From an uncultured Lachnospiraceae bacterium (lineage in GTDB: Bacteria; Bacillota; Clostridia; Christensenellales; UBA1242): 45,819 nt of DNA. A program made the translations under genes and the position numbers. Each line of letters starts with the position of its first letter. The stretch's first letter is position 1. The stretch is taken from contig CAYWFC010000001.1 in the NCBI GenBank assembly GCA_964457935.1, positions 1 through 45,819 of the forward strand, written 5' to 3'. The notes beneath the pieces were generated by a model. It ran no database searches and was not told the DNA's origin. It worked only from the letters and a program-made list of their open reading frames with translations. Below, in pieces: positions 4,449 through 39,875 of the stretch.

Positions 4449-4774
4449 ATAAAATTATATTTAGATAATTTTCTGAAAAATTTAATAATTTTCAAAAAAA
4501 TGCGAAAAAAATCCAAAAAATGCAAAAAAAGTAGAAAAAATAGCAAAAAATTCATATTTTTTATCATTTTTGACTATTTTAACGAAAAATGCGATTGACA
4601 ATTTTTACCATATATGTTATCATTCCGATGACGCTAGAATAAATATGTGCTAGAAAATAACAATATTTTTTTAGATAGTTTTGTATCATCTTCGCCAGCA
4701 GTGAGTGCAATATGGTGGACATATGATTGCCTCATGAGAAGAATAACTAACGCAACAAATAAAACTATCGCAAC

Positions 4775-4809
4775 AAAAAATCCTATGATATAGCTCATAG
4801 GATTTTTTT
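4775..4809. terminator. Bidirectional rho-independent terminator
   Basis: The sequence is AAAAAA-TCCTATGA-tatagc-TCATAGGA-TTTTTTT. It lies immediately 3' of the minus-strand CDS ending at 4812. Confidence 0.7.
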
Positions 4810-4811
4810 GA

Positions 4812-5240
4812 TTACATCTCCTCCAAGTCCAAGTCGTACTGGATATTCCATTCGCCTACCAAGAATGTGGCGATCAGGAATAACGAAATACTACCAGACA
4901 GAGCCATCATTACTTCGTACATACCTACGACGTCAGCAGGCATACGACCTGTGCCAGCCAGCACGAAGTAAAGCACGACAGCCATAGCGACAGCGCTCAG
5001 TACTAGGCAGTACATAATGATGCCGGCGATGAATTTGCTACCTTTGGTGATAGTGCAAATGATGTCCAGCACCAGCACGCCGATAGCCACTGCTATCCAC
5101 ACGTAGTAGATGATCATAGCCCACATAGGCACGTCGAAACTAGCCACTGCCCACGCGAATAATCCGCACAGCGCGAATGCTATGCCCAGCAACGCGTAGT
5201 ATGTCATATTGGTCAGCACTCTCTTTTCTCTGATATCCAT
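4812..5240 (-). CDS. Small integral membrane protein (4 TM), function unknown
   Basis: The ORF is 142 aa and hydrophobic. A GGAGG SD precedes the ATG at 5240. Confidence 0.7.
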   Translation of the reverse strand: MDIREKRVLTNMTYYALLGIAFALCGLFAWAVASFDVPMWAMIIYYVWIAVAIGVLVLDIICTITKGSKFIAGIIMYCLVLSAVAMAVVLYFVLAGTGRMPADVVGMYEVMMALSGSISLFLIATFLVGEWNIQYDLDLEEM

Positions 5241-5375
5241 AAAACCTCCTATAAGTGTTAGTGCTAGTTTGACCCAATGTGGAGAAAATTATACGCAAAA
5301 ATTGCTATTTGGCGGTGGCAATGTGCTGTGTGGGCAGGAAAAATAAAAAAAATTAAAATATTTTTCTCTAAATTA

Positions 5376-5404
5376 TTGACAAATGTCGCAGTTTTGTGTA
5401 ATAT
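5376..5404 (+). promoter_or_regulatory. Promoter of the tRNA pair
   Basis: TTGACA (5376-5381), a 17-nt spacer, then TAATAT (5399-5404). It ends about 10 nt upstream of the first tRNA. Confidence 0.6.
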
Positions 5405-5413
5405 ATGCAGTGT

Positions 5414-5490
5414 GGCGGTGTGGCTTAGGTGGTTAGAGCGAACGATTCATACTCGTTAGGTCATAGGTTCGAGTCCTATCACCGCTACCA
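5414..5490 (+). tRNA. tRNA-Met (anticodon CAT), elongator-like; an Ile2/lysidine identity cannot be excluded
   Basis: I folded the cloverleaf by hand. The acceptor is GGCGGTG/CACCGCT, the D arm GCTT-AGGTGGTTA-GAGC, the anticodon arm AACGA-TTCATAC-TCGTT and the T arm ATAGG-TTCGAGT-CCTAT. The discriminator is A and CCA is encoded. Length is 77 nt. Confidence 0.9.
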
Positions 5491-5525
5491 ATTTAATAAT
5501 CCCGCGGTACTCCCGCGTCCGATAT

Positions 5526-5600
5526 GGTCCCATGGTCAAGCGGTTAAGACACCGCCCTTTCACGGCGGTATCAGGGGTTCGATTCCCCTTGGGACTACCA
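5526..5600 (+). tRNA. tRNA-Glu (anticodon TTC)
   Basis: GGTCCCATGGTCAAGCGGTTAAGACACCGCCCTTTCACGGCGGTATCAGGGGTTCGATTCCCCTTGGGACTACCA closely resembles bacterial tRNA-Glu. The anticodon loop is CTTTCAC and CCA is encoded. Confidence 0.92.
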
Positions 5601-5636
5601 AAAAAAGTCGTATCTAGTGTGATACGACTTTTTTTT
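5601..5636. terminator. Rho-independent terminator after the tRNAs (bidirectional shape)
   Basis: AAAAAA-GTCGTATC-tagtgt-GATACGAC-TTTTTTTT. Confidence 0.8.
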
Positions 5637-5682
5637 CGAGTCACAGGCATGAGTGTTACCGCCTGAAACAAGGTACTAAGTA

Positions 5683-5904
5683 TTAGTCCATTTCTCTAGT
5701 ATTATCTTCCATCGAGTCTATGAGGCGCTCCATTATAGTGCGACCTTTAGTGTACTTTTGCCATTTGTAAGTGTTTTCTTTAGAAGTAAACATATCACTT
5801 TCTTCGATATAATCACCTATAGTCTTGCCTTCATAATCTTTTAGCGTCTCGTCTGTAGTTTGTCCGAGTTCTTTATTTGCATTCTTGTATTCTTCATTAT
5901 TCAT
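5683..5904 (-). CDS. Small acidic hypothetical protein (73 aa)
   Basis: The start is set at MNNEEYKN (ATG 5904), preceded by AAAGGAGAA. The gene has its own promoter and operator (next feature). I recognise no family. Confidence 0.55.
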   Translation of the reverse strand: MNNEEYKNANKELGQTTDETLKDYEGKTIGDYIEESDMFTSKENTYKWQKYTKGRTIMERLIDSMEDNTREMD

Positions 5905-8427: not shown

Positions 8428-10251
8428 ATGACCAACGAAAAAATCAGAAATGTAGCTATCATTGCCCACGTAGACCATGGCAAGACCAGCCTAGTCAACG
8501 AAATGCTGAAGCAGGGCAATGTTTTTCACGAAAATCAAGTGGTAGAGGACAGAGTAATGGACTCCAACGCCATAGAGCGTGAGAGAGGCATCACCATACT
8601 CGCAAAGAACGCCAGCTGTATGTACAACGGTGTGAAAATCAATGTAGTAGACACCCCCGGACACGCAGATTTCGGCGGAGAAGTGGAGCGCGTGCTGAAA
8701 ATGGTGGACGGCGTATTGCTGGTAGTAGACGCATTCGAGGGCACTATGCCACAGACGCGTTTCGTGCTAGAAAAGGCGCTCGCACTCAACCTGCGCGTAG
8801 TGGTAGTCATCAATAAAATCGACCGCCCAGACGCACGCCTAAAAGAAGTAAAAGACGAAGTGCTAGAGCTCCTCATGGACTTAGACGCGAATGACGAACA
8901 GCTGGACAGCCCGTTCGTGTATTGCTCCGCGCGCAACGGCACTAGCAGTCTATCAGAAGGCGAAGTAGGCACAGATATGCGTCCGCTGTTTGAGACTATA
9001 CTCAGCCACATCCCAGCACCAGAGGGGGACGAGAGCGCACCGTTCAAGATGCTGGTGTCGTCAGCCGAGCACAATGATTATCTCGGCAAACTGGTAGTGG
9101 GCAAAATCACTGCCGGCAAGGTCAAACTGGGCGACAACATAGTAGTGACCAATTACCACGAGCCAAAGAGCGTCAATGGCAAGATACAGCAGATATTCGC
9201 ATACAAAGGCTTGCAACGCGTGCAGGCAGACAGCGCCGAAGTGGGCGACATAGTGTGCCTCGCTGGTCTGGACAACTGTCTCATAGGCGACACTGTCAGC
9301 AGTCGTGAGGACGCCACCCCTATCGAGTTTGTAAAGATAGACCCACCTACTGTGGAGATGACATTCCTAGTGAACGACAGCCCGTTCGCTGGCAAAGAAG
9401 GCAAATACGTGACCAGCAGACACTTGCGCGAACGCCTATACAAAGAAGCCATAAAAGACTTGTCCCTGCGCGTGACTGACGGCGAGACTAGCGAGAGCTT
9501 CAAAGTATGCGGACGCGGTGAGATGCACTTGTCTATCCTGATAGAGAATATGCGTCGCGACGGGTATGAGTTTCAAGTCAGTATGCCACGCGTATTGCTC
9601 AAAGAAATAGACGGCAAACTGTGCGAGCCTATAGATATACTGTACATCGACGTGCCAAAAGACTGCGTCGGCTCTGTCATCACTCGTATGGCGAATAGAA
9701 AAGGCGAACTCATATCTATGGACGACCACAATAGCCGTATGAAATTGAAATTTTATATCCCAGAGCGCGGATTGTTCGGCTTCAAATCCGAATTCCTGAC
9801 CGACACTCGTGGTGAAGGCGTGATGAATAACATTTTCCACGAATACCAGCCACACAAAGGCACTATCCGCCGTAGAGAGTTTGGCTCGCTCATCGCGTGC
9901 GAGACTGGCGACGCTGTGGTGTATGGCTTGTACAATGCTCAAGATAGAGGCGACCTATTCATTACCCCGGGCACTGCTGTGTACGAAGGTATGGTGGTAG
10001 GCCAAAATCCTAAAGGCGACGATATCCCAGTCAATGTGTGCAAGAAAAAACACCTGACCAATATGCGTAGTAGCAGTAGCGATGAGGCTCTCAGACTCAT
10101 CCCTGTCAAAATGCTGAATATAGAGGAGAGCCTGGAATTCCTAAACGACGACGAGTACCTCGAAGTCACTCCAAAAAACTTGCGCATACGCAAAATCCTG
10201 CTCACTAACGACGAACGTCTGCGCCAAAAGGCTAGAATGAGTAGACAATAA
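8428..10251 (+). CDS. typA: Translational GTPase TypA/BipA
   Basis: MTNEKIRNVAIIAHVDHGKTSLV (G1), DTPGHADFGGEV (G3) and NKIDR (G4) are present, with an EF-G-like domain order. The start is set at ATG 8428 after AAGAGGAAA; the track ORF begins at an upstream GTG. Confidence 0.95.
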   Translation: MTNEKIRNVAIIAHVDHGKTSLVNEMLKQGNVFHENQVVEDRVMDSNAIERERGITILAKNASCMYNGVKINVVDTPGHADFGGEVERVLKMVDGVLLVVDAFEGTMPQTRFVLEKALALNLRVVVVINKIDRPDARLKEVKDEVLELLMDLDANDEQLDSPFVYCSARNGTSSLSEGEVGTDMRPLFETILSHIPAPEGDESAPFKMLVSSAEHNDYLGKLVVGKITAGKVKLGDNIVVTNYHEPKSVNGKIQQIFAYKGLQRVQADSAEVGDIVCLAGLDNCLIGDTVSSREDATPIEFVKIDPPTVEMTFLVNDSPFAGKEGKYVTSRHLRERLYKEAIKDLSLRVTDGETSESFKVCGRGEMHLSILIENMRRDGYEFQVSMPRVLLKEIDGKLCEPIDILYIDVPKDCVGSVITRMANRKGELISMDDHNSRMKLKFYIPERGLFGFKSEFLTDTRGEGVMNNIFHEYQPHKGTIRRREFGSLIACETGDAVVYGLYNAQDRGDLFITPGTAVYEGMVVGQNPKGDDIPVNVCKKKHLTNMRSSSSDEALRLIPVKMLNIEESLEFLNDDEYLEVTPKNLRIRKILLTNDERLRQKARMSRQ

Positions 10252-10460
10252 TAGACCTTGTCCGCCCTGAATGTAAATAGTGCGACAAATGTAGTCTCTA
10301 TTAGACATAAATGCAAACGATTACATAAGTGCAGTCTTTATCAGACCTAAATGCAGATGATGAGACCGATATAGACCTTGTCTAAATATAAGTGATGAGA
10401 CTAGTATAAACCTCATCTAACCTATGTGTAAATAATAAGATAATATTTATTAGATATAGA
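10237..10460. repeat. Degenerate echoes of the typA 3' end
   Basis: ATGAGTAGAC..ATAGACCTTGTC (the CDS end) recurs as GATGAGACCGATATAGACCTTGTCT and GATGAGACTAGTATAAACCTCATCT. AAATG(T/C)AG also recurs. The periodicity is loose. Confidence 0.5.
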
Positions 10461-10464
10461 CAAA

Positions 10465-10497
10465 CAAAAAACTTTGGCAGTGTGCCAAAGTTTTTTT
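10465..10497. terminator. Bidirectional rho-independent terminator between convergent genes
   Basis: AAAAAA-CTTTGGCA-gtg-TGCCAAAG-TTTTTTT. Confidence 0.8.
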
Positions 10498-10501
10498 GAT
10501 A

Positions 10502-11161
10502 TTAATTACCAGTAGTAGGTGGTACATATTCAAATGCCTTCCTTACTTCAGATAAGGTTTTGCCAATATTGGCTGATTGGATAGACTCTATATCTATTTT
10601 GACCTCTATATCTGCCGAAGTAGGTGTGCCAGTCAGACCAGTAGGGATGCAGAATGATGTAGTAGACAATATAGTCACTGCACTGCTATCTGCTTCTATT
10701 TCTATAGGTACTAATTGATTATTGACATAGTATACCCAACCGTCGGTGTCTCTAGTAGCAGAACAAGCGGCTTTGAAATTATCATAACCCTCATTTCCTG
10801 TATTAAAATTATTATTCAACTGAGAAATAATATCAGACATGTTACTATCTTTGCAACTAAATGTGACTTTGAACCTAATATACATACCAGATGAATTAGC
10901 ATCAGCTTTGATTGTGACATCTTTACTCAGTATGGCTCCATTTGTAGTTACAGTACTATTGACAGGTAGTGTTTCATCAGTTATGTTATTACCGTCAGAG
11001 TTACCCAATGTGAACTCGATCTTACCGAATGAGTGAGTGCCGGAGCCGGATTTTTGGCTGACAAAATACGCATATGTGCCTAAAGCTCCACATGCCACCA
11101 AGCATACTGCCAAACAGATTATCAATAGACGATATGTTCTCTTACTCATAGTTTTCTTCAT
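10502..11161 (-). CDS. Secreted protein with SipW-dependent (TasA/camelysin-type) signal peptide
   Basis: The start is set at MKKTMSKRTYRLLIICLAVCLVACGALGTYAYFVSQ, after GGTGGAG. The GTYAYF(S/V) motif after the h-region is typical of SipW-cognate signal peptides. The mature part is beta-rich. Confidence 0.7.
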   Translation of the reverse strand: MKKTMSKRTYRLLIICLAVCLVACGALGTYAYFVSQKSGSGTHSFGKIEFTLGNSDGNNITDETLPVNSTVTTNGAILSKDVTIKADANSSGMYIRFKVTFSCKDSNMSDIISQLNNNFNTGNEGYDNFKAACSATRDTDGWVYYVNNQLVPIEIEADSSAVTILSTTSFCIPTGLTGTPTSADIEVKIDIESIQSANIGKTLSEVRKAFEYVPPTTGN

Positions 11162-11327
11162 ATATCTACTCCACCTCGTAGCATTAGTATATACTATTAT
11201 AACAAAAAAAACAAACATTTTCGCCAAAAATTTTTCACAAAAAATATCATCAAAAATAGTTGACACAATATAATGTGTATATATCGTATGCCACTACTAC
11301 AAAATAGCCAATTTTGAAATAAAATAA

Positions 11328-11483
11328 TGTGGAAATGTGGATAACTTGGGTGAAATTGTCCACTTTTGCCTTGAAAATAAGGGATTTTGGGTATGTGGAT
11401 AGAATGTGGATAACATTTTTTGCGCGGTGGAAATGTGGAAATGTGGATAACTCTGTGGGTTGTTTTGTACAAAACGAAGTGGG
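11328..11483. promoter_or_regulatory. DnaA-box cluster remote from dnaA
   Basis: Perfect TGTGGATAA (= TTATCCACA) boxes lie at 11336-11344, 11405-11413 and 11442-11450. One-mismatch boxes are TGTGGATAG (11394-11402) and TTTGGATAA (11475-11483). Two-mismatch boxes lie at 11328, 11356 and 11434. Nearly all have the same orientation. Confidence 0.7.
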
Positions 11484-11591
11484 TTTTGGATAATTTTTTA
11501 GAACAAATATCAAACATTCGACAATTTGCACCACTTTTCGCTTGATAAAAAAGTGTGAGTGAGATAATATATACCTATTAGACGGAGTGTG

Positions 11592-11777
11592 ATGAACGAG
11601 AGAGATTTGTGCAGGCTGAGTGAGTATTTCGACGAGAGGATAGACTTGTCAGACTTTACGACGGAGGAACTAGAGGAAATGCTACAGGGCTTGCCGTCGG
11701 ACGAGAAGTTTAAGGACAATTATTTCGCGTATTACGATGACGTGAAGGACAAATCTCGCCCAAAACAAGACTGGTAA
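11592..11777 (+). CDS. Small acidic hypothetical protein (61 aa)
   Basis: ATG 11592 follows ACGGAG. The sequence is MNERDLCRLSEYFDERIDLSDFTTEELEEML... Its last codons plus stop (CAAGACTGGTAAAAGCA) are echoed about 60 nt downstream. I recognise no family. Confidence 0.4.
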   Translation: MNERDLCRLSEYFDERIDLSDFTTEELEEMLQGLPSDEKFKDNYFAYYDDVKDKSRPKQDW

Positions 11778-11966
11778 AAGCAGAGCCTATCTACCAAAAA
11801 CAGCAAAATCAGCTAAATACAAACAAAGCAAGACTGGTAAAAGCAAGTGAAATGCTCGCACTGAATGGATATTCGTGACAGATAAGTGTCTTAATAGTCT
11901 CTATAATGACAAAAATAATTGACATTAACATAATATTTGTGCTATCATCTAGTATAGAGGTAACAA

Positions 11967-12488
11967 ATGAAATATACTAAAATAACCAAAAAATTAGGTG
12001 GGATAGTACGTAGTATCTTTTGGGGATTTGTAATATTAGTACTTTTAGGCTTATCGGGTTTATTCGTCTGGTGCGATTTTAGTATGGCAAATCCTTTAGT
12101 AAGTTTTGTGTTGTTGGTGTGGATACCAGGGTTGTGCTATTCGGTAAATTATTGTATTAGTTTAATCGCGGGCGATGAATTGACGAATACTGGTATGGTG
12201 AGTGATGGCCATTCGGTATTTGACATAAAAAGAACACCAAAATACTATAGTAGAAGAATGATTTCGCACTTTGTAGGATGTATACTCTTTGTTTTATTAT
12301 TATTAAGGTATATGTTTTATTTGGGTTATCTTTGTATTATGTCTGCTTATTACTTGGTATTTTTCTTCGTGGGGGCAGTAGGTTCTGTGATCGGTGTAGT
12401 GGTTTGTTTCATATTCGGAATGAGTGCTTACGAGAAAAGTAGCCTAAAACAAAGAAAAGATAATGTGGATAATACTGAAATAAAATAA
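11967..12488 (+). CDS. Integral membrane protein, function unknown (AT-rich gene)
   Basis: The ORF is 173 aa with 4-5 TM segments. The SD is GAGGT. An upstream promoter reads TTGACA-18 nt-TATCAT. Confidence 0.65.
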   Translation: MKYTKITKKLGGIVRSIFWGFVILVLLGLSGLFVWCDFSMANPLVSFVLLVWIPGLCYSVNYCISLIAGDELTNTGMVSDGHSVFDIKRTPKYYSRRMISHFVGCILFVLLLLRYMFYLGYLCIMSAYYLVFFFVGAVGSVIGVVVCFIFGMSAYEKSSLKQRKDNVDNTEIK

Positions 12489-12569
12489 ATTGCACTAGAG
12501 AGCAAAATCTGCAAATCTTGCGACATATTAAGTGCCGGAATTTAGTTTAGTCAGATATCTATATAGATA

Positions 12570-12614
12570 AAAAAAGAGAACACGTGAGCGAAGCTAGGTG
12601 TTCTTCTTTTTTTT
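12570..12614. terminator. Possible rho-independent terminator
   Basis: AAAAAAAG-AGAACAC, a 14-nt loop, then GTGTTCT-TCTTTTTTTT. The stem is short and the loop long. Confidence 0.45.
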
Positions 12615-12624
12615 CGTCTAGACA

Positions 12625-12810
12625 TTAGTATTGCATATTGAATGGGAAGGATGAGAGTGAGCAAGAGCAATTATTCATACGCTCGATGAGTTCTTTCTTC
12701 TTCAGATAAGTAGACTCAGTGCCGTAGTGTTTGATGTCGAGCTCTTTTTCTTCTTCCTTCATCATTTTGTGTATGAGAGTGGTCCTGTCTTCTGTGTGGG
12801 AATATTTCAT
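12625..12810 (-). CDS. Small hypothetical protein (61 aa)
   Basis: A good AAGGAG SD precedes ATG 12810. The sequence is charged and helical (MKYSHTEDRTTLIHKMMKEEEKELDIKHY...). I recognise no family. Confidence 0.5.
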   Translation of the reverse strand: MKYSHTEDRTTLIHKMMKEEEKELDIKHYGTESTYLKKKELIERMNNCSCSLSSFPFNMQY

Positions 12811-12885
12811 AATGGGTATCTCCTTTTCGCTGACATATTAGCATACAATGTGAGCATTGTCAATAGTGAAAATGAAAAATATATT

Positions 12886-13178
12886 ATTATATCAAAGTCA
12901 TACTGGCATCCTTATAGCAAAATATATAATTCTGCAAAAGTTATACTGTCACACTTATAAAAACACATCGTTCTATCAAAGTCATACTGGTGCACTTGTA
13001 GCAAAATATATTATTTTGTCAAAGTAATATTGTCGCACTTATAAAGATAAATCATTCTGCCAAAGTCATACTGGCGCACTTGTGGCGGAAAATTATAATT
13101 CTATCAAAGTAATATTGTCAAATTTATAAACATACATTATTCTGCCAAAGTCATACTAGCGCACTTGGTGTATGCGCG
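12886..13178. repeat. ~42-bp tandem array (7 units) echoing the yigZ-like gene's 3' end
   Basis: Units resemble ATTCTGCCAAAGTCATACTGGCGCACTTGTGGCGG.... They alternate between better and worse copies. The last unit (13138 onward) is the real C-terminal codons plus stop. Confidence 0.85.
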
Positions 13179-25234: not shown

Positions 25235-25274
25235 TAGAATAACTCCCTTAGCACCACCAAATAATAAAATATAT

Positions 25275-25319
25275 AAACAACCCCCATTTCGCATCGCAAA
25301 GTGGGGGTTGTTTTGTTTA
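25275..25319 (+). terminator. Rho-independent terminator hairpin; left copy of a 45-bp direct repeat
   Basis: AAACAACCCCCAtttcgcatcgcaaagTGGGGGTTGTTTTGTTTA has a 10-bp stem ACAACCCCCA/TGGGGGTTGT and a T-rich tail. It is 44/45 identical to 27662-27706. Confidence 0.8.
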
Positions 25320-25605
25320 GATACTATTTTTTATCACACCCTAGCAACGGACATTGAATTATTGCAAAATACAACTTTTTCAAATTTAATTATAAAAACA
25401 CAAATGAATGGCAGTGAATATTGACATTGTAACAAATTATATGTTATAGTCTAGTCAATGAGCAAATAACCAAATTGGCTTGCTATAATTATTAAATAAA
25501 AATCAACTATAATCTAACCTTTTATGTTAAGGTTGGTCAGTTATGTAAGTTAATCGCAATTATAGGTGATTAGCTTTTTTGTTGTAAAAAAATCAAGGAG
25601 GAAAA

Positions 25606-26205
25606 ATGGAAAAATTTACAATAAAGGCAAACAAATATTTAGATAGGGACATTTTGGGTTATTATAACTGCGAATATGTAGGCTATCACAAAAGTGGAAA
25701 CCCAGACTTTATTAACCACTTAAAAAATATGAACAAACAGCATAGCGAATTAGAACTGGTCAAAGATTTTATTGCTGTTTATGAAAAAGCAGTCAAAGAC
25801 ATTACGGAAATTACGCAAGGAAATACAGATTTTATGGTGTGTGTTATTCCAAGGTCAAAAGCAGAAAATCATTACGCTGTGTGCCAATTAATGTTTAGGA
25901 AAGCAATTTCTAGCGCAGTAGACAATCTCGGGTTGGAAAATGGATCAGATATAATCAAAAGAATAAAAGATACAAAAACTACACATAATTGGAGATTGGA
26001 ACACAATACAGGAGAAATGCCTTATCAAAACATTACACTAGACACATGTGAAATTAAAAAAAATGCAATTAATGGCAAGAATATTATTTTAGTAGATGAT
26101 GTTTATACTGCAAATGTTAATGTCGCTGAAGATTGCATTCAAACATTGTTGAATTTGGGCGCAAAAAATGTTATATTATATGTAATAGCAAAAACAAGAG
26201 AGTAA
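25606..26205 (+). CDS. ComF/phosphoribosyltransferase-fold protein (199 aa) with a divergent PRPP loop; candidate ShosT-like component
   Basis: The SD is a strong AAGGAGG. FMVCVIPRSKAEN and GKNIILVDDVYTANVNVAEDCIQTLLNLGAKNVILYVIAKT align by eye with ComFC/type-I PRTases (VPIPLS...; IILIDDLYTTGATL). The gene is AT-rich. Confidence 0.75.
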   Translation: MEKFTIKANKYLDRDILGYYNCEYVGYHKSGNPDFINHLKNMNKQHSELELVKDFIAVYEKAVKDITEITQGNTDFMVCVIPRSKAENHYAVCQLMFRKAISSAVDNLGLENGSDIIKRIKDTKTTHNWRLEHNTGEMPYQNITLDTCEIKKNAINGKNIILVDDVYTANVNVAEDCIQTLLNLGAKNVILYVIAKTRE

Positions 26206-26207
26206 AT

Positions 26208-27047
26208 ATGTCTTCGATATTGGCGTTAAAATTGTATGAAATGAAAAGACATGGCACGATAAAGTCCAATGCTATGTTTTGGCGCGATTTTTTTGATAAA
26301 GAGATGATAAAGGCTCTTGATATTAATTTAGAGTCATTAAAAAAAGAACTCCTAGAAAAAAGTTTGAGTGTAGTTTGTGCTTTTGATGACAATTTTCCGA
26401 ATATAAGCCAAAAGCTCAAACCCAGTGAAAGACCGTTTCTGTTTGTATACAAAGGTGATATAAATTTATTAAACGAAATAGATAATAATATTGCCGTAAT
26501 CGGTGTTTTGACCCCGACTCAAGATATCGTGACGAGAGAACAAAAAATAGTAAAAGAATTAGTAGAAAATAATTTAACTGTAGTTAGCGGACTGGCAAAA
26601 GGTTGCGATACTATTGCCCATAAAGTTTGCATAGACAATGGCGGAAGAACGATTGGCATTCTCCCTACATCTTTTGATAGTATATATCCAAAAGAGAACA
26701 AAAATCTGGTGGATGAAATAGTGAAAAATAATGGGCTAGTGCTAACAGAATATGTCAGTGAAGCAAAAAACAGATTTGATAAAATTAAAAGATTTATTGA
26801 CAGAGATCGACTGCAAGCAATGTTTGCAAAAGCTATAGTACTAGTAGCCAGTTTTGCGCAAGGAAATGGAGATAGCGGGTCTCGCCATGCGTTACAAAAA
26901 GCAAAAGAATATGGCAAAGCAAGATATGTCATGTTTGACAAAAAAACGGACATCAATGCACCAATCTTCGAATTGAATAAACAGCAGATTTTGGACGGGG
27001 CTACTATTTTGACAAATGTGACAATAAAGGAATTGTATCTAAAATGA
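26208..27047 (+). CDS. DprA/Smf-like Rossmann (SLOG) domain protein (279 aa); candidate ShosA-like component
   Basis: The start is set at ATG 26208, 2 nt after the upstream stop; the track's 26133 start overlaps gene A. PFLFVYKGDINLL, IAVIGVLTPT, TVVSGLAKGCDTIAHKVCIDNGGRTIGILPTSFDSIYPKENKNL, LVLTEY, FIDRDRL and GSRHALQKAKEYGKARYV follow the DprA Rossmann-domain motif order. Confidence 0.8.
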   Translation: MSSILALKLYEMKRHGTIKSNAMFWRDFFDKEMIKALDINLESLKKELLEKSLSVVCAFDDNFPNISQKLKPSERPFLFVYKGDINLLNEIDNNIAVIGVLTPTQDIVTREQKIVKELVENNLTVVSGLAKGCDTIAHKVCIDNGGRTIGILPTSFDSIYPKENKNLVDEIVKNNGLVLTEYVSEAKNRFDKIKRFIDRDRLQAMFAKAIVLVASFAQGNGDSGSRHALQKAKEYGKARYVMFDKKTDINAPIFELNKQQILDGATILTNVTIKELYLK

Positions 27048-27574
27048 TATACGTTGTTGATTTGGATGATACACTTGTTAATTCTACATTACTTAACAAT
27101 GATTCTTATAATTTTGCACTTGAACAGTATGGATTCGACAGAATAATAACTAATGAAAGAATTACGCGCCAAAAATTGGATTTTGTGGATAACTGCATCC
27201 TAAAAAAAATAGTACAATTAAAACAATATTACTTTACACAAGAATGGCTACCTTGCAGAGTTGTGTTAAATAATATTCTTATGAAGCGACTACAAGTCAA
27301 TAAAAGAGAAAATTGCTATCTATGGACTAAAGCAGACAAAGATAGAGCGTATAAAATAATTGATTATTGTAAATTAGATATGTTTTTTAATGATATCTTG
27401 TTTGATGATAAATTAAGTTTCTCTACATCAATACCCAAACTAAAAAAATCGACTAATTCAAATCAGATAATAATCTATGAAAACGACAAAAGCTTTTTCT
27501 TTAATGAGAATTGTAAAATAGTAGATCATATCAAAACTAATCTTTTTGACATCAATGCATATCTAATAGAATAA
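27044..27574 (+). CDS. HAD-superfamily phosphatase-like protein (176 aa)
   Basis: An ATGA overlap couples it to the DprA-like gene. The N-terminal MIYVVDLDDTLV is HAD motif I (DxDxT). LWTKA is a candidate motif II. The gene is very AT-rich. Confidence 0.7.
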   Translation: MIYVVDLDDTLVNSTLLNNDSYNFALEQYGFDRIITNERITRQKLDFVDNCILKKIVQLKQYYFTQEWLPCRVVLNNILMKRLQVNKRENCYLWTKADKDRAYKIIDYCKLDMFFNDILFDDKLSFSTSIPKLKKSTNSNQIIIYENDKSFFFNENCKIVDHIKTNLFDINAYLIE

Positions 27575-27661
27575 TATTTCATATTGCACCATGAAAAACT
27601 CGCTATAAAACGGGTGAACCAAAAAATATTTTACTAAAAAATAATGTACAGTCAAATAGTG

Positions 27662-27706
27662 AAACAACCCCCATTTCGCATTGCAAAGTGGGGGTTGTTT
27701 TGTTTA
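27662..27706 (+). terminator. Rho-independent terminator hairpin; right copy of the 45-bp direct repeat
   Basis: AAACAACCCCCAtttcgcattgcaaagTGGGGGTTGTTTTGTTTA differs from the left copy by a single loop substitution (C to T). Confidence 0.8.
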
Positions 27707-27719
27707 CATATTATTAATT

Positions 27720-27870
27720 TATAATATTTATTAGCTTTTTACTCAAGATTTTTTCTTAAGATTTTTGCTTTAATCTTTTATTTTAATTATTTCTTAAGAT
27801 TTTTGCTTTAGTTTTTTAGTTTAGTTCACTTTAGTTTTTTATTCTAGTTTTTTACTATGAAATTGATGAC
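27720..27870. repeat. T-rich degenerate echoes of the leuS 3' end
   Basis: TTCTTAAGATTTTTGCTTTA occurs twice. TTTAGTTTTTTA / TTTAGTTTTTTATT / CTAGTTTTTTACTATG form a series, and the last is the real leuS stop region. Confidence 0.5.
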
Positions 27871-32184: not shown

Positions 32185-33285
32185 TTAGTTTAGTCTCACA
32201 GGGGAGATGAGGTACAGATAATCCTCAGTCTCGATAGGCAATATGATGCATGGGTTGACAGCATTGGTGAAGTTTAGTTTGACAAACTCATCGCTAATGG
32301 CGCGCAGGCAGTCAATGAAATACTTAGAATTAAACGCTATCAGCAAGTCATCGCCGGCAGTGACTGCGTTGATATTCTCCATGATGTTGCCGTATTCGGA
32401 GTTTGACGTGATAGTGATATTTTTCTCAGTGATGTCGAATTTCACCAGGTTATTCCTATCTGTGCGCGACAGCACGCTCGCTCTCTCGAGTGCCTCGCCG
32501 AACAACGGACTGGACAGTGTCACTACGGTAGAGAAATTCTTCTGTATGATCTGTTTGTAGTTGATAAAATCGCCCTCTATCAGTCTAGTAGTGACTACGG
32601 TAGAGCCCATCTCGAAGCGGAGATTTTTGTCAGTGACGTACACTCTGATAGTCTCGTCAGAGTCGCCTATCATCCTAGATATCTCGCTCAAAGTCTTGGC
32701 TGGCACGATGACCTTGAAGTCACCTGTAGTGCTAGATATCTTCTCATTGGCGATAGCCATCCTATATCCGTCCAACGCTACGGCGCGGATATTGTCGCCC
32801 TGCACCTCGAGCAAGCACCCTTTGAGTATAGGGCGCGAGTCGTCTGTGGCTACGGCGAAAATCACTCTATTGACGAGAGACTTGAGCGACTGCTCGCTGA
32901 TCTCGAAATATTTGTCCTTCTCTATGAATGTAGGGGCTGGGAATTCGAGCAACTCCATACACTGTATGTAGCCTTCGCTGTCTGTATATGACACTTTGAG
33001 CTGATTTTTCTCATTCAATATGCAAGTCACTTGTTCGTTAGTCAATTTGCGCAAATATTCGCCAAAAAGTTTGCCCGGCACTACTGCCTGACCTTCGCTT
33101 TTTACCTCGGCGCGGATAGTCTTTTGGATACTGATCTCGTAGTCTGTGGCGCACAATATCAGGCTATCACCTACAGTGCGTAACTTGATACCCTCGAGTA
33201 TAGGGGCGGTAGTCTTGGTGCTGGTCGCCTTGATCACTCTGGCGATCGCTTCTGACAAATCTAATCCATTACATCTAAAATTCAT
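32185..33285 (-). CDS. dnaN: DNA polymerase III beta subunit (sliding clamp)
   Basis: The ORF is 366 aa. MNFRCNGLDLSEAIARVIKATSTKTTAPILEGIKL...DGYRMA...P is the typical DnaN three-domain pattern. The SD is TAGGAG. Confidence 0.95.
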   Translation of the reverse strand: MNFRCNGLDLSEAIARVIKATSTKTTAPILEGIKLRTVGDSLILCATDYEISIQKTIRAEVKSEGQAVVPGKLFGEYLRKLTNEQVTCILNEKNQLKVSYTDSEGYIQCMELLEFPAPTFIEKDKYFEISEQSLKSLVNRVIFAVATDDSRPILKGCLLEVQGDNIRAVALDGYRMAIANEKISSTTGDFKVIVPAKTLSEISRMIGDSDETIRVYVTDKNLRFEMGSTVVTTRLIEGDFINYKQIIQKNFSTVVTLSSPLFGEALERASVLSRTDRNNLVKFDITEKNITITSNSEYGNIMENINAVTAGDDLLIAFNSKYFIDCLRAISDEFVKLNFTNAVNPCIILPIETEDYLYLISPVRLN

Positions 33286-36012: not shown

Positions 36013-37374
36013 ATGAATTTGCACGAAGAATGGAAGAAAGTATTGGATATATTGCAGAACGAAGTGACGGCGGTCACTTTTGACCTATGGATAGATACAC
36101 TAGAGCCTATATCCTACGCCAATGACGAGCTGAGGCTGATGGCGTCTAGCCAGACGGCGAAAAATCAGGTGAACAATAGGAGCCTGTACCCTAAGATACA
36201 AGACGCAGTCAAAGAAGTATTCAACACATACACCACTGTCAAGATAGTGGACCAGCAGGAGCACGAAGAAGAACTCGAACGCGCCAAGATACTGGTCGAG
36301 AGCCAAAAGGCAGAAGAAGAGAACAAACAGAAATTCGACCCGAAATTCACTTTTGACAATTTCGTGGTAGGTAAGTCTAATCAATTCGTGTATGCAGCGG
36401 TGCGCAGTGTGGCTGAGAACCCTAGCTCGAAATTCAATCCGCTATTCATATACGGCGGTGTGGGACTGGGCAAGACACACTTAATGCAGGCGGCGGGGAA
36501 TTATCTCGCGCAGACTAGACCAGAACTAAACGTGCTGTATGTGACGTGTGAGAAGTTTATGAACGACTACGTGGACGCAGTGCGCTCGGGCAAAGAAAAA
36601 AACGGCGCCGAGAATGGCAACTTTAGCTTCAGAGAGAAGTACAGAAACACTGACGTGCTCATGGTGGACGATATACAGTTTATATCAAACAAAATGGGCT
36701 TGCAGGAAGAGTTTTTCCATACATTCAATGACCTGTACCAAAATCACAAACAAATATTGATAGCGAGCGATAGACCGCCAAAAGAAATCGCTACACTCGA
36801 AGAGCGTCTGCGCAGTAGATTTAGTAGCGGACTGATCCAAGACATACAGACCCCAGACTTCGAGACTAGAGTGGCGATATTGCGCAAAAAGGCTGGACAA
36901 GAAGGCTATCTCGTAGAGGACGAGGTCATAGACTACATAGCATCAAAATCTCATACCAATATTCGTGAAATGGGACAAGTGCTGAACAAAGTGGTGTTTT
37001 ATGCATCACTCATAGGCAAGAACAAAGCCACCATGGACGAAGTGTACGAGGCGCTAAAGGATACCGAAGAAGAAAACCAAGAGAGCGTGGACGTGGATAA
37101 GATAATAGACGCTGTGTGCGATTTCTTCAAGGTCAGTCGTGACGACCTAGTGGGCAAGAAAAAGAGCAAAGACATAGTCGAGCCACGCCAAGTGTGCATA
37201 TACCTGATCAACGAAATGCTGACATTGCCACTCAAGGCCATAGGCGCCATATTCGGCGGACGCGACCACACCACAGTGATGCATGCGAGAGACAAAATCA
37301 CCACCGGGGTAAAAAATAACCCACACATCAGGACACTGGTAAATGATGTGAAATCTAAAATATTGAATAATTAA
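36013..37374 (+). CDS. dnaA: Chromosomal replication initiator protein DnaA
   Basis: Length is 453 aa. It has an N-terminal domain I, an acidic linker and AAA+ motifs (GGVGLGKTHL, LMVDDIQF). The C-terminal DNA-binding domain reads ..IGAIFGGRDHTTVMHA. Confidence 0.97.
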   Translation: MNLHEEWKKVLDILQNEVTAVTFDLWIDTLEPISYANDELRLMASSQTAKNQVNNRSLYPKIQDAVKEVFNTYTTVKIVDQQEHEEELERAKILVESQKAEEENKQKFDPKFTFDNFVVGKSNQFVYAAVRSVAENPSSKFNPLFIYGGVGLGKTHLMQAAGNYLAQTRPELNVLYVTCEKFMNDYVDAVRSGKEKNGAENGNFSFREKYRNTDVLMVDDIQFISNKMGLQEEFFHTFNDLYQNHKQILIASDRPPKEIATLEERLRSRFSSGLIQDIQTPDFETRVAILRKKAGQEGYLVEDEVIDYIASKSHTNIREMGQVLNKVVFYASLIGKNKATMDEVYEALKDTEEENQESVDVDKIIDAVCDFFKVSRDDLVGKKKSKDIVEPRQVCIYLINEMLTLPLKAIGAIFGGRDHTTVMHARDKITTGVKNNPHIRTLVNDVKSKILNN

Positions 37375-37625
37375 AATAAATATCAAAAAAATAAAATAAT
37401 TAAAATAAAAAACGAAAATAAAATAAAAAATAAATAAAAATAATAAATCGGAAAATAAATAAAAAATAAATCGGAAAATAAATAAAAAATAAATCAAAAA
37501 AATAAATAAAAATAAAAAAAACGACAAAAAATAATTAAATAAAATATTTATCGCCCATATCTCAGCATAAAGCGAAGAATAAATAATAAATAAAAAATAA
37601 ATAAAATAAAAAAGCACATTTATCA
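37375..37625. repeat. Extremely A-rich (plus strand) low-complexity/tandem-repeat tract downstream of dnaA
   Basis: About 250 nt are almost free of G/C. The tract includes ATAAATCGGAAAATAAATAAAAA x2 plus a degenerate third copy. AATAATTAAAATAAA also echoes the dnaA stop region (TTGAATAATTAAAATAAA). Confidence 0.8.
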
Positions 37626-37668
37626 CTAAAATACCCAGCGAATAAAATGTGCTTTTATTTTATATGAA

Positions 37669-37911
37669 TTATTCATAAACTTCATCAATATTATTGAAAT
37701 AGTCTCTATCGAAAAATTGCGACAAGGTGATATTGGCACTAGCACACAATTTTTTGATAGTGAATACAGTAGGGCATTTGCTCTTGCCTGACATAAAATC
37801 AAAAACTGTCGATGGCGTGAGATTGGCATTGAGACACAATGCTGTCAATGTGGTGCCACATGCACTAACTAATTCACGTATGCGTAGTCTTAATGCTTCA
37901 TCTAAATTCAT
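37669..37911 (-). CDS. XRE-family HTH transcriptional regulator (80 aa)
   Basis: The SD is ACGGAG. The pattern LTALCLNANLTPSTVFDFMSGKSKCPTVFTIKKLCASANITLSQFF is shared with the CDS at 6002-6247 (GKSK.P...TI..LC...NITL..FFD). Confidence 0.85.
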   Translation of the reverse strand: MNLDEALRLRIRELVSACGTTLTALCLNANLTPSTVFDFMSGKSKCPTVFTIKKLCASANITLSQFFDRDYFNNIDEVYE

Positions 37912-37954
37912 ACTTACTCCGTTATTTGTTCAACAATAAAGTTTTGTTCGCAAA

Positions 37955-38254
37955 TTAATTTTTGATAAACTCTATGATATTTTTCTTTTTGTCGGCAGGC
38001 AGGGCGTCGAGCAGTGCGCGTAACTCTGCGTCTACGTAGTAGTGAGACATATCTGCGCTAAAAAATCTCTCGATGGGAAAATCACAAACCTCGAGTATCT
38101 TCAATAATTTCTCCACTGTCAATACTATGCGCCCACTCTCTACTTGTGCGACGTATTGTGGGCTCATACCTATGCGTAGGCTTACTTCTCTGGCAGATAG
38201 TTTGGCTTGGTTGCGCACGTAACCTATGCGCGATAATATTTCGGCAATATCCAT
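37955..38254 (-). CDS. XRE-family HTH transcriptional regulator (99 aa)
   Basis: The start is set at MDIAEIL, after AAGGAG. LSAREVSLRIGMSPQYVAQVESGRIVLTVEKLLKILEV is a classic HTH_3 pattern. Confidence 0.85.
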   Translation of the reverse strand: MDIAEILSRIGYVRNQAKLSAREVSLRIGMSPQYVAQVESGRIVLTVEKLLKILEVCDFPIERFFSADMSHYYVDAELRALLDALPADKKKNIIEFIKN

Positions 38255-38311
38255 ATTCACTCCTTATATATCGAGTATAAATTAAATTAATACTGGCGTT
38301 AGAACGTCACA

Positions 38312-38373
38312 CACATAAAATTGTGAACAATTTGACACTTTTGAATACACAAACACATAAAATGTGTTATAAT
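38312..38373 (+). promoter_or_regulatory. Extended -10 promoter with two CACAT..ATGTG operator-like inverted repeats
   Basis: TGtTATAAT lies at 38365-38373. A perfect inverted repeat CACAT-aaa-ATGTG at 38354-38366 overlaps it. An imperfect copy CACATAAAATTGTG lies at 38312-38325. Confidence 0.45.
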
Positions 38374-38419
38374 GAATAGTGAGAGTATTCAAAATGGGTA
38401 CAAAAGGAGAGTTTTGGGA

Positions 38420-38890
38420 GTGGATACACATAAATCGTGTGCAGTATTTGGGCATAGTGAAATAATTGAAACCGTTAGTTTGAGAGAAGAAACGAAAAGG
38501 ACGTTGGAGGACTTGGTTAAACAGGGATATTGCTACTTTTATTTCGGTGGATTTAGTATGTTTGATGAAATGTGTCGTGAGATAGTTGGCGAGTTGAGAG
38601 TGCAATATCCACAGGTCATGCGAATATACTGTGCTCCAGACAGAAGATATCTCAGGATAAACAAACGACCATCGTGGCTAAAGAAAGAAGATTACGAAGA
38701 AATAATTTACATAGAGTTGGAGTTTGATTGGTGGTACAATAGGCTATATTATAGAAATTGCGCCATGGTAGACAGAAGTGATGTGGTATTAATTTATGTC
38801 GAAGAACGCGAGAATTCAGGTGCTTATAAAATATACAAATATGCATTGCGAAAGAAAAAGAAAATTATCAATATGTTTGACCAAAAATAA
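38420..38890 (+). CDS. YpsA/DUF1273-like SLOG-family protein
   Basis: The start is proposed at GTG 38420, 9 nt after AAAGGAGA; the track's ATG 38372 lies inside the -10 box. KSCAVFGHSE, YFYFGGFSMFDEMC and DRSDVVLIYVEERENSGAYKIYKYA parallel B. subtilis YpsA (..GQLGVELW.., DKSDGLLLLYDPEKEGSPKY), recalled from memory. Confidence 0.6.
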   Translation: MDTHKSCAVFGHSEIIETVSLREETKRTLEDLVKQGYCYFYFGGFSMFDEMCREIVGELRVQYPQVMRIYCAPDRRYLRINKRPSWLKKEDYEEIIYIELEFDWWYNRLYYRNCAMVDRSDVVLIYVEERENSGAYKIYKYALRKKKKIINMFDQK

Positions 38891-38948
38891 ATGCAATGAT
38901 TGACACAAAATACTGGAAAAATGTGCGCGAGTGTGGTATAATATATGT

Positions 38949-39875
38949 GTGTTGATCAAGAACCTAGTGAATAGTGACATATACAAAAAAATATCTGCCG
39001 ATGCGGAAGCGCCGTTCCATGCGTATCTTTTTTATGGTGGGGACAGGGCGCTGAATGACAATGTGGCGGAGATTTTTTGCTATGCGGTGATGTGCGACAG
39101 GCACGAGCCATGCTTCGAGTGCGAGGCGTGCAGGCGGATAGCGCTAGGGTCACATCCGGATGTGAAGGTGATAGACAAGCCTGCCATACAGGTGGACGAC
39201 GTAACAGGCATACTTGAAGAATGTGTGCTAAAGCCGATATGTGGCGAGCGCAAGGTGATATTCATCAAGAATGCGGATGTGATAAACGAGCAGAGCCAAA
39301 ACAAACTACTCAAGACGCTAGAAGAGCCACCGCAAAATGTCATATTCGTACTGACGACGGACAATATAGACAAACTACTAGTGACGGTGCAGAGCAGGCT
39401 AAAGAAGATACACTGTGCCATGAATGATTTCAGCGTGATAGAGTCTGACCTACGCGCATTGGGAGTGGCTAATCTAGAAGGGGAAGATTTGACCACCATG
39501 CTAGACCACGCGTCGAATGAGTCCTATGCGCGCATGCGAGGCAAGGTGGAGGGGCTGATATCTGCGCTGACCAGCAGTGCGGTGGTGCCCAAACTATCGT
39601 CTACGCTAGATGTGGCGCAGGGCGAGCGAAAGATGTTTTTTGCCACTATGTATGATTATTATGACCGTATGCTAAAGTACGCGTGCGGGAGTGATGTGCG
39701 AGCGGATGATTTTCTGGCGACGGTGGTGCCTATGTACACAGTCAAGGCGCTGGTGCAGATACTGCCTGTCATACAGCAGGCGTATTACAGAGTGTGCAGG
39801 AATGTGAATTTCGGCTATGTGGTAGACGATATGTTATATGAGATATTAAAAGTGAGGTATATATGCAAGCAATAG
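38949..39875 (+). CDS. holB: DNA polymerase III delta-prime subunit
   Basis: HAYLFYG, the zinc module CFECEACRRI, KLLKTLEEPPQNVIFVLTT and VQSRLKK are present. The start is uncertain: the track ORF begins at GTG 38931, inside a TGgTATAAT box. I chose the in-frame GTG 38949, 6 nt after that box. Confidence 0.85.
   Translation: MLIKNLVNSDIYKKISADAEAPFHAYLFYGGDRALNDNVAEIFCYAVMCDRHEPCFECEACRRIALGSHPDVKVIDKPAIQVDDVTGILEECVLKPICGERKVIFIKNADVINEQSQNKLLKTLEEPPQNVIFVLTTDNIDKLLVTVQSRLKKIHCAMNDFSVIESDLRALGVANLEGEDLTTMLDHASNESYARMRGKVEGLISALTSSAVVPKLSSTLDVAQGERKMFFATMYDYYDRMLKYACGSDVRADDFLATVVPMYTVKALVQILPVIQQAYYRVCRNVNFGYVVDDMLYEILKVRYICKQ

Follow-up and report, generated by a model that had tools for sequence, protein, structure and literature searches.

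A probable split-toxin form of the ShosTA system with a free-standing HAD phosphatase in an uncultured Lachnospiraceae bacterium

The 45,819-nt stretch of DNA analysed here (hereafter, the window) comprises positions 1 to 45,819 of contig CAYWFC010000001.1 from an uncultured Lachnospiraceae bacterium (assembly GCA_964457935.1; Christensenellales, UBA1242 in the GTDB lineage) and carries a cassette of three same-strand genes, A, B and C, which encode a phosphoribosyltransferase (PRTase), a DprA-like protein and a phosphatase of the haloacid dehalogenase (HAD) superfamily, respectively. This cassette is very probably a form of ShosTA, a validated toxin–antitoxin (TA) and anti-phage system (PMC11961720; PMC12961424), in which the toxin is split over separate genes. 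Sequence comparison places it in a known family with an undescribed architecture, that is, a split and permuted toxin accompanied by a HAD protein predicted to be catalytically intact, and no description of a three-gene ShosTA was found in the literature searched. Taken as a whole, we regard it as likely that the cassette is a ShosTA-type TA or abortive-infection module with gene C on the toxin side, and that this AT-rich unit, which has its own promoter, was acquired horizontally and inserted into the terminator region that lies between a large upstream gene and leuS. Considered by itself, the toxin-side role of gene C is somewhat favoured.

Gene products and their counterparts in Escherichia coli ShosTA

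The three genes are closely packed (Table 1). The sequence AGGAGG sits 8 nt 5' of the start of gene A, a 2-nt gap separates the TAA stop of gene A from the ATG of gene B at 26208, and the ATG of gene C shares bases with the TGA of gene B in an ATGA overlap. A sequence-only reading made earlier had described this layout exactly, with the coordinates, the gap and the overlap, and the peptide motifs that it quoted are all present. It had also assigned A to the PRTase fold, B to the DprA/SLOG fold without the winged helix, C to the HAD phosphatases and the A–B pair to the core of ShosTA, and each of these assignments agrees with the comparisons that follow.

The product of gene A has no Pfam match and matches the PADLOC ShosT model (PDLC03962) with an E-value of 3.8e-12. 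Its matches to PADLOC PsyrT (1.2e-5, over profile positions 535-685 of 689 only) and to ComF TIGR00201 (3.9e-6; 26.9 bits, with a cut-off of 233.55) were weaker and weak, respectively. The AlphaFold model of A (mean predicted local distance difference test, pLDDT, of 93) has a PRTase fold, and in a Foldseek search of the PDB the first three ranks were taken by crystal structures of E. coli ShosT (8zvc, 8zvd and 8zvb; E 1.3e-4, TMq 0.58), with PurF, HGPRT and ComF below them (Helicobacter pylori ComF at rank 7). When a broad alignment of the A family was compared with the E. coli ShosT family by hhalign, residues 4-199 of A aligned with residues 169-379 of E. coli ShosT (Prob 95.3%, E 2.4e-8), which covers the entire PRTase domain. 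This significance was reached only with the broadened PRTase alignment: a narrow alignment paired the loop that binds phosphoribosyl pyrophosphate (PRPP) alone, and phmmer and profile searches of the PDB with A or C returned no ShosT match. In E. coli, the PRTase domain of ShosT binds PRPP and is the part responsible for toxicity, which is lost on mutation of D331/D332 and R285 (PMC11961720; PMC12961424). The residues of A that align opposite these are D164/D165, invariant among 38 homologues, and R130, conserved in at least 90% of them. The position of ShosT H240 is occupied in A by Ser84, between R83 and K85. Homologues of A number 174, all of about 200 aa, and close homologues of C number 58, all of about 175 aa, which indicates that these are real genes and not chance open reading frames (ORFs).

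The product of gene B matched PADLOC ShosA (PDLC03961) at 1e-52 (177 bits) and Pfam DNA_processg_A at 4.6e-41 (141 bits), and no Pfam match to a winged helix was found. The match to PADLOC PsyrA was weaker (1.3e-19), that to dprA TIGR00732 (1.7e-35, 122.2 bits) lay below the cut-off of 191.15, and one to SLOG LDcluster4 (4.3e-5, 23.6 bits) was sub-threshold. Published work describes ShosA as a DprA-like type IV antitoxin which binds to single-stranded DNA (ssDNA) and to RecA, with Arg139 and Arg234 as ssDNA-binding arginines required for antitoxin activity (PMC11961720; PMC12961424). The equivalent of Arg234 is kept in the RDRLQA motif of the present subfamily, from which Synechocystis alone differs (RNRLQA). 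B has fewer residues than E. coli ShosA: its N-terminal region is truncated and the C-terminal tail is missing. It also differs at the position of Arg139, as weighed below. Longer ShosA homologues (L013, L014, L015, L017, L018 and L067) have a conserved Q-x-x-L-F-like C-terminal tail, with examples such as GLFS, QDNLF, AHLFD, QTLF, QMKLF and KNLFE, and E. coli ShosA (L068) has QQLSLLGDE; gene B and its closest relatives are without it. This tail, which we take to resemble the beta-clamp-binding pentapeptide QL[SD]LF, may have to do with the instability reported for the C-terminus of ShosA. The E. coli plasmid DprA matches H3-H6 were dropped from the comparison, their neighbours being primase and RecQ genes and not ShosT.

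For gene C, the Pfam HAD matches were sub-threshold (NIF 0.0055, HAD_2 0.02). Its model (pLDDT 95.3) is a HAD fold with a C1 cap and resembles HAD IA structures; the PDB fold search gave 55 matches with E<=1e-3, of which the 50 listed were essentially all from the HAD family. The four HAD motifs are conserved, namely motif I D6-x-D8-x-T10, motif II T95, motif III K123 and motif IV E146. Among 82 diverse relatives, D6 is kept in 80, D8 in 78, T10 in 81, T/S95 in 80, K123 in 59 and E/D146 in 79, and the cap residues N18, R39, K60 and R101 are nearly invariant. From this conservation, C is predicted to be a competent phosphatase. It shares the HAD Rossmannoid core, the C1 helical cap and motifs I-IV with BT2127 and the other C1-capped HAD IA phosphatases, and differs from BT2127 in that the invariant cap residues are those of its own family.

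The 'type III' pyrophosphatase (PPase) of Bacteroides thetaiotaomicron is taken here to be a member of the HAD superfamily. E. coli ShosT (424 aa) consists of two domains, a hydrolase (residues 1-164) and a PRTase (residues 165-424), and the first of these resembles that enzyme, binds phosphate and hydrolyses pyrophosphate (PPi) in vitro in a reaction reported as Mg-independent (PMC11961720; PMC12961424); Pu et al. compared it with the inorganic pyrophosphatase BT2127 (PMC11961720). The R56A mutation in this domain lowered toxicity only marginally (PMC11961720; PMC12961424), and the substrate of ShosT and the role of the N-terminal hydrolase were both called open by Pu 2025 (PMC11961720) and Yang 2026 (PMC12961424).

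We recovered E. coli ShosTA from prophage P2_4C9, in which shosA is followed by the fused shosT, and the broad PADLOC models matched by its two proteins are those that A and B match. The N-terminal domain of E. coli ShosT gave weak Pfam HAD matches (PF00702, 2.9e-4), many of its relatives (30-42% identity) have precomputed HAD_2/Hydrolase and Pribosyltran matches, and NCBI uses the name 'HAD family hydrolase' for some of these relatives and for a 256-aa fragment of the protein. Of 103 E. coli-type ShosT proteins of full length, 101 have Gly or Ser where the HAD nucleophile would stand and none has Asp there, whereas the motif III Lys is kept in 99 and the motif IV G...D in 102. Judged by these motifs, the E. 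coli-type N-terminal domain is a HAD derivative without the nucleophile. Since a HAD-type module is present within canonical ShosTA, the third gene of the window cassette is not an addition to the system.

The window cassette shares three modules with the ShosTA of Kimelman 2012, Rousset 2022 and Millman 2022 (P2-like prophage hotspot; structures 8ZVA-8ZVD and 9VZO), namely a HAD-type domain, a PRTase of the ShosT type whose PRPP loop has the DD pair, and ShosA, which is DprA-like. Tight gene coupling and an accessory, mobile character are likewise shared. It differs in that the toxin is spread over two genes, for a PRTase of 199 aa and a HAD protein of 176 aa, on either side of the antitoxin gene, so that the one-polypeptide HAD-PRTase toxin is not found and A is a PRTase only. 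In C, a C1 helical cap is present and the DxDxT motif is intact, with the nucleophile that the E. coli-type domain lacks. The window proteins share very little sequence identity with those of E. coli: no ShosT match was found by phmmer, and ShosA (PDB chains 8zva/9vzo) matched B at about 5e-17. PsyrTA/RqlHI likewise pairs a PRTase-domain toxin with a DprA-like antitoxin, but in PsyrT, of about 690 aa, a RecQ-like helicase region lies N-terminal to the PRTase, and PsyrTA is without a HAD component; identification of the cassette as PsyrTA/RqlHI was rejected because A has 199 aa and no RecQ-like helicase region.

Linkage, permutation and fusion of the HAD gene

Gene neighbourhoods were read off the contigs that carry the genes and were also collected by scanning one genome for each species. 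As a result, a HAD gene was found to accompany the PRTase–ShosA pair in 17 of 17 assessable loci, the window included, from at least six phyla; three further loci were broken by contig ends and stand outside the 17. The co-occurrence that the sequence-only reading had proposed to look for among homologues is thus conserved. The loci with the order A-B-C came from Christensenellaceae, other Bacillota, Veillonella and Clostridia, and the nearest homologues of the window cassette were found in Christensenellales-like gut metagenome-assembled genomes. In the loci with the order C-A-B, of which A-B-C is a circular permutation, C lies directly 5' of A, and the two genes overlap in L017 and L021 (Table 1). 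The genes of L067 are labelled by NCBI as HAD hydrolase-like, hypothetical and DprA, and an Abi gene adjoins them. In the Veillonella sp. 3891 locus (L016), a second gene-B-like DNA stretch at 8653-8987, 3' of the complete cassette, may be a partial duplication.

An exhaustive hidden Markov model search with the C profile identified fusion proteins of three kinds, one of which (ShosA-HAD) is treated below. In P0318, P0320 and P0304, a C-like HAD with an intact DLDGTL motif and an A-like PRTase form a single protein; in two of the three, the HAD part exceeded the Pfam HAD_2 threshold. In another protein (P0264, 380 aa), a C-like HAD is joined to a region resembling PADLOC PD-Lambda-3_A (1.8e-19), which suggests that the HAD module is common to another defence system.

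Degraded forms of the cassette were also found. Only the last 20-58 codons of gene A remain in L001-L004, L071, L076 and L022 (20-30 in L001-L004 and L071), with B intact; C is intact beside the remnants except in L022, and L076 has a B-C fusion. The break points of the toxin remnants lie near residues 171-180 in three of four lineages.

Outside the window, the cassette has neighbours that include a type I restriction-modification (RM) system (L007), AbiE together with a SLFN-like gene and an integrase (L069), and prophage-like genes (L073). Genes for tRNA (Thr, Ile) lie directly 5' of the cassette in L007 (6133-6208) and of the remnant in L071 (37-113), the arrangement to be expected of integration hot spots. 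In L073/L074, the gene beside and divergent from the cassette, with its predicted PRPP-binding toxin, encodes a PRPP synthetase (4576-5760, minus strand), which may be a coincidence.

Proposed mechanism and the side on which the HAD protein acts

The comparisons described above establish to which families the proteins belong, how their domains are arranged, that the three genes are linked, that fusions occur and that the catalytic motifs are kept; toxicity, antitoxicity, phage defence and the substrate of gene C we infer from them, and the following scheme is proposed on that footing. By homology with ShosT, A would bind PRPP, and it may consume PRPP or phosphoribosylate an acceptor, by which purine or nucleotide metabolism would be disturbed, resulting in replication stress and killing. 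B, as a type IV antitoxin of the ShosA type, would repair or prevent DNA damage via recombination functions and without binding the toxin. On infection, toxicity could be released by the loss of unstable ShosA after host shut-off or by its diversion by phage ssDNA. C would correspond, as a protein of its own, to the HAD-like domain that canonical ShosT carries at its N-terminus, and most likely it would hydrolyse PPi or the 5'-phosphate of the PRTase product, thereby making phosphoribosyl transfer irreversible. It is because of the HAD-PRTase fusions in both families, the adjacency of C to A and the result with E. coli R56A that C is placed on the toxin side.

Several observations weigh against this explanation. 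No significant sequence similarity was found between C or its family and the N-terminal domain of E. coli ShosT: an 82-sequence HAD profile gave a negative hmmsearch result against E. coli ShosT, narrow-alignment hhalign returned nothing for the HAD part, and broad hhalign gave an alignment that was collinear across the four motifs with a Prob of only 5%. Neither ShosT nor BT2127 appears in the 50 fold matches listed for C. The equivalence of C to the N-terminal domain is therefore one of position, architecture and superfamily, and orthology is not claimed; in addition, because the nucleophile is kept in C and absent from the E. coli-type domain, their chemistry may differ. At the position of the ShosA Arg139, B has Leu, and Leu or Thr occupies it in all 13 aligned subfamily sequences. 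Furthermore, PADLOC identified no further defence gene among ten other ORFs of the window, where the cassette stands alone close to dnaA/dnaN and outside any defence island; relatives elsewhere do lie beside the type I RM, AbiE and prophage genes mentioned above. The remaining points, namely the ShosA-HAD fusions, the coupling of C to B and the B and C genes kept beside remnants of A, agree at least as well with C acting on the antitoxin side.

An alternative, which appears unlikely, is that C is an antitoxin-side enzyme or a second antitoxin that dephosphorylates the product of A or hydrolyses PRPP, so that B and C would form the protective half of the cassette. The ATGA coupling of C to B would fit this role, whereas C overlaps or abuts A in the four C-A-B lineages. 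Similarly, ShosA-HAD fusions exist (P0180, P0315 and the fragment P0207), but the HAD is fused to the PRTase throughout the E. coli-type family, and such fusions are found in the A-type family as well. The retention of B and C beside the A remnants of L001-L004 and L071, and in fused form in L076, fits an antitoxin-side C; however, toxin-first decay is expected of any TA module and assigns C to neither side, and in L022, C decays along with A. An intact DxDxT motif is as expected of a true phosphomonoesterase, and among PDB sequences the C profile matches a nucleotide (XMP) phosphatase best, although weakly (E 0.0022). On the other hand, the E. coli R56A mutation slightly lowered toxicity and did not raise it. 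A related and equally doubtful idea is that the substrate of the free-standing HAD protein, with its nucleophile kept, is PRPP or what ShosT makes by phosphoribosylation, the enzyme serving either in the maturation of a toxic nucleoside or as a second antitoxin. If this were true, the nucleophile-less E. coli domain would be a degenerate relic, the published 'PRTase plus PPase coupling' model would not be the ancestral mechanism, and the toxin-less ShosA-HAD pairs and fusions would be functional two-part modules.

It is far less probable that the cassette is a new nucleotide-conflict system apart from ShosTA, as the sequence-only reading had put forward, in which the PRTase, SLOG and HAD proteins would act in turn on one nucleotide-like molecule. 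Such action would make or destroy a modified nucleoside. A PRTase followed by a HAD phosphatase is a known two-step logic of nucleoside making, B has the sub-threshold SLOG LDcluster4 match, and it is without the Arg139 equivalent used for ssDNA binding. However, B scores 177 and 141 bits as ShosA and DprA, respectively, against 23.6 bits as a LOG-like protein, and homologous ShosA binds ssDNA and RecA experimentally; action of the SLOG protein on the same nucleotide finds little support. The same reading had treated the HAD protein as an extra component unknown in ShosTA, whereas E. coli ShosT already has a HAD-like N-terminal domain; since canonical two-gene ShosTA is formed of the same three modules, no new system is needed. 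Finally, that these are the housekeeping competence genes ComFC and DprA with a neighbouring phosphatase is scarcely credible: the type I PRTase-like and DprA Rossmann folds are shared, and the ComF and dprA matches and the rank of H. pylori ComF point that way, but both scores lie far under the curated cut-offs, the ShosT and ShosA models fit better, no DprA winged helix was found, GC is low, and the surroundings of the cassette change from genome to genome, a plasmid among them. The score cut-offs and the accessory rather than core distribution exclude a competence role.

Genomic setting of the cassette

Table 1. Coordinates of the cassette and its flanking features in the window, gene orders at the assessable loci, and toxin remnants at other loci
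Feature	Position	Strand	Size or description
Gene A, ShosT-type PRTase domain alone, no fused N-terminal hydrolase	25606-26205	+	199 aa
Gene B, ShosA, DprA-like antitoxin, short, without C-terminal tail or winged helix	26208-27047	+	279 aa
Gene C, free-standing C1-capped HAD phosphatase	27044-27574	+	176 aa
Strong promoter-like site, TTGACA-18-TATAGT with TG extension	25421-25450	+	11/12; cassette promoter candidate
Left flanking direct repeat	25267-25328	+	hairpin 25275-25313 and T-run; probable terminator of the 2014-aa gene
Right flanking repeat	27654-27715	+	hairpin 27662-27700 and T-run; probable cassette terminator, possibly also of convergent leuS
Order A-B-C			12 loci: window, L005, L007, L009, L010, L012, L014, L016, L018, L019, L069, L073
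Order C-A-B			4 loci: L015 (Anaerolineae), L017 (Moraxella caviae), L021 (Kiritimatiellia), L067 (Synechocystis PCC 6714 plasmid pSYLB)
HAD-PRTase fusion, then overlapping ShosA gene			1 locus: L075
Toxin remnant, L001-L004	about 5041-5169		
Toxin remnant, L071	427-486		
Toxin remnant, L076	93-152		
Toxin remnant, L022	1862-2035		

The AT-richness and the bracketing repeats described by the sequence-only reading were both confirmed: GC is 28-35% over 25-28 kb, compared with about 46-52% on either side, and the cassette is flanked by a direct repeat of 54-62 nt with 90-94% identity, of which a 54-nt core (27662-27715 in the right copy) is 94% identical. Each copy contains a G+C-rich hairpin followed by a T-run. 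Two copies only were present in the window and none among 76 related loci. The DNA match to the L007 cassette, the closest foreign one, extends from about 25407 to the end of gene C, which indicates that the promoter-like region moves together with the cassette. Because this match excludes the repeat and the repeat is absent elsewhere, the repeat looks like a local terminator that was duplicated when the cassette arrived; as a target-site duplication, 54 nt would be unusually long. No integrase or transposase was found inside or beside the flanking duplication. An exact search of metagenome contigs with the hairpin repeat gave 0 matches and thus no empty insertion site, and two exact look-ups with the LeuRS of the window returned no record.

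The cassette lies between a 2014-aa ORF upstream and a convergent leuS downstream, with dnaN and dnaA 5-9 kb further along. The latter two genes are divergent (dnaN 32185-33285, minus strand; dnaA 36013-37374, plus strand), with two other ORFs between them, and a stretch of 33-37% GC at about 37000-39000, after dnaA, may be oriC, which would place the cassette within about 10 kb of the probable origin. In the spacer from the right repeat to the leuS stop, AT-rich tandem-like repeats with a 12-13 nt period and units such as CTTAAGATTTTTGCTTTA take up 27735-27854. No tRNA gene was found near the cassette in the window, the nearest being at 5414-5600. A second island of low GC (35-38%) at 10000-13000 may be another accessory insert; its ORFs at 10502-11266 (minus strand) and 11967-12488 (plus strand) had no Pfam or PADLOC match.

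The variant described here naturally separates the PRTase of ShosTA from its hydrolase, and the active site of the hydrolase is complete. As the two are encoded by separate genes, each activity can be deleted, mutated or purified individually. Annotation tools built on two genes would call the cassette a two-gene ShosTA and overlook its third component. The absence of the nucleophile throughout the E. coli-type family also bears on how the reported Mg-independent PPase activity of ShosT is to be read.

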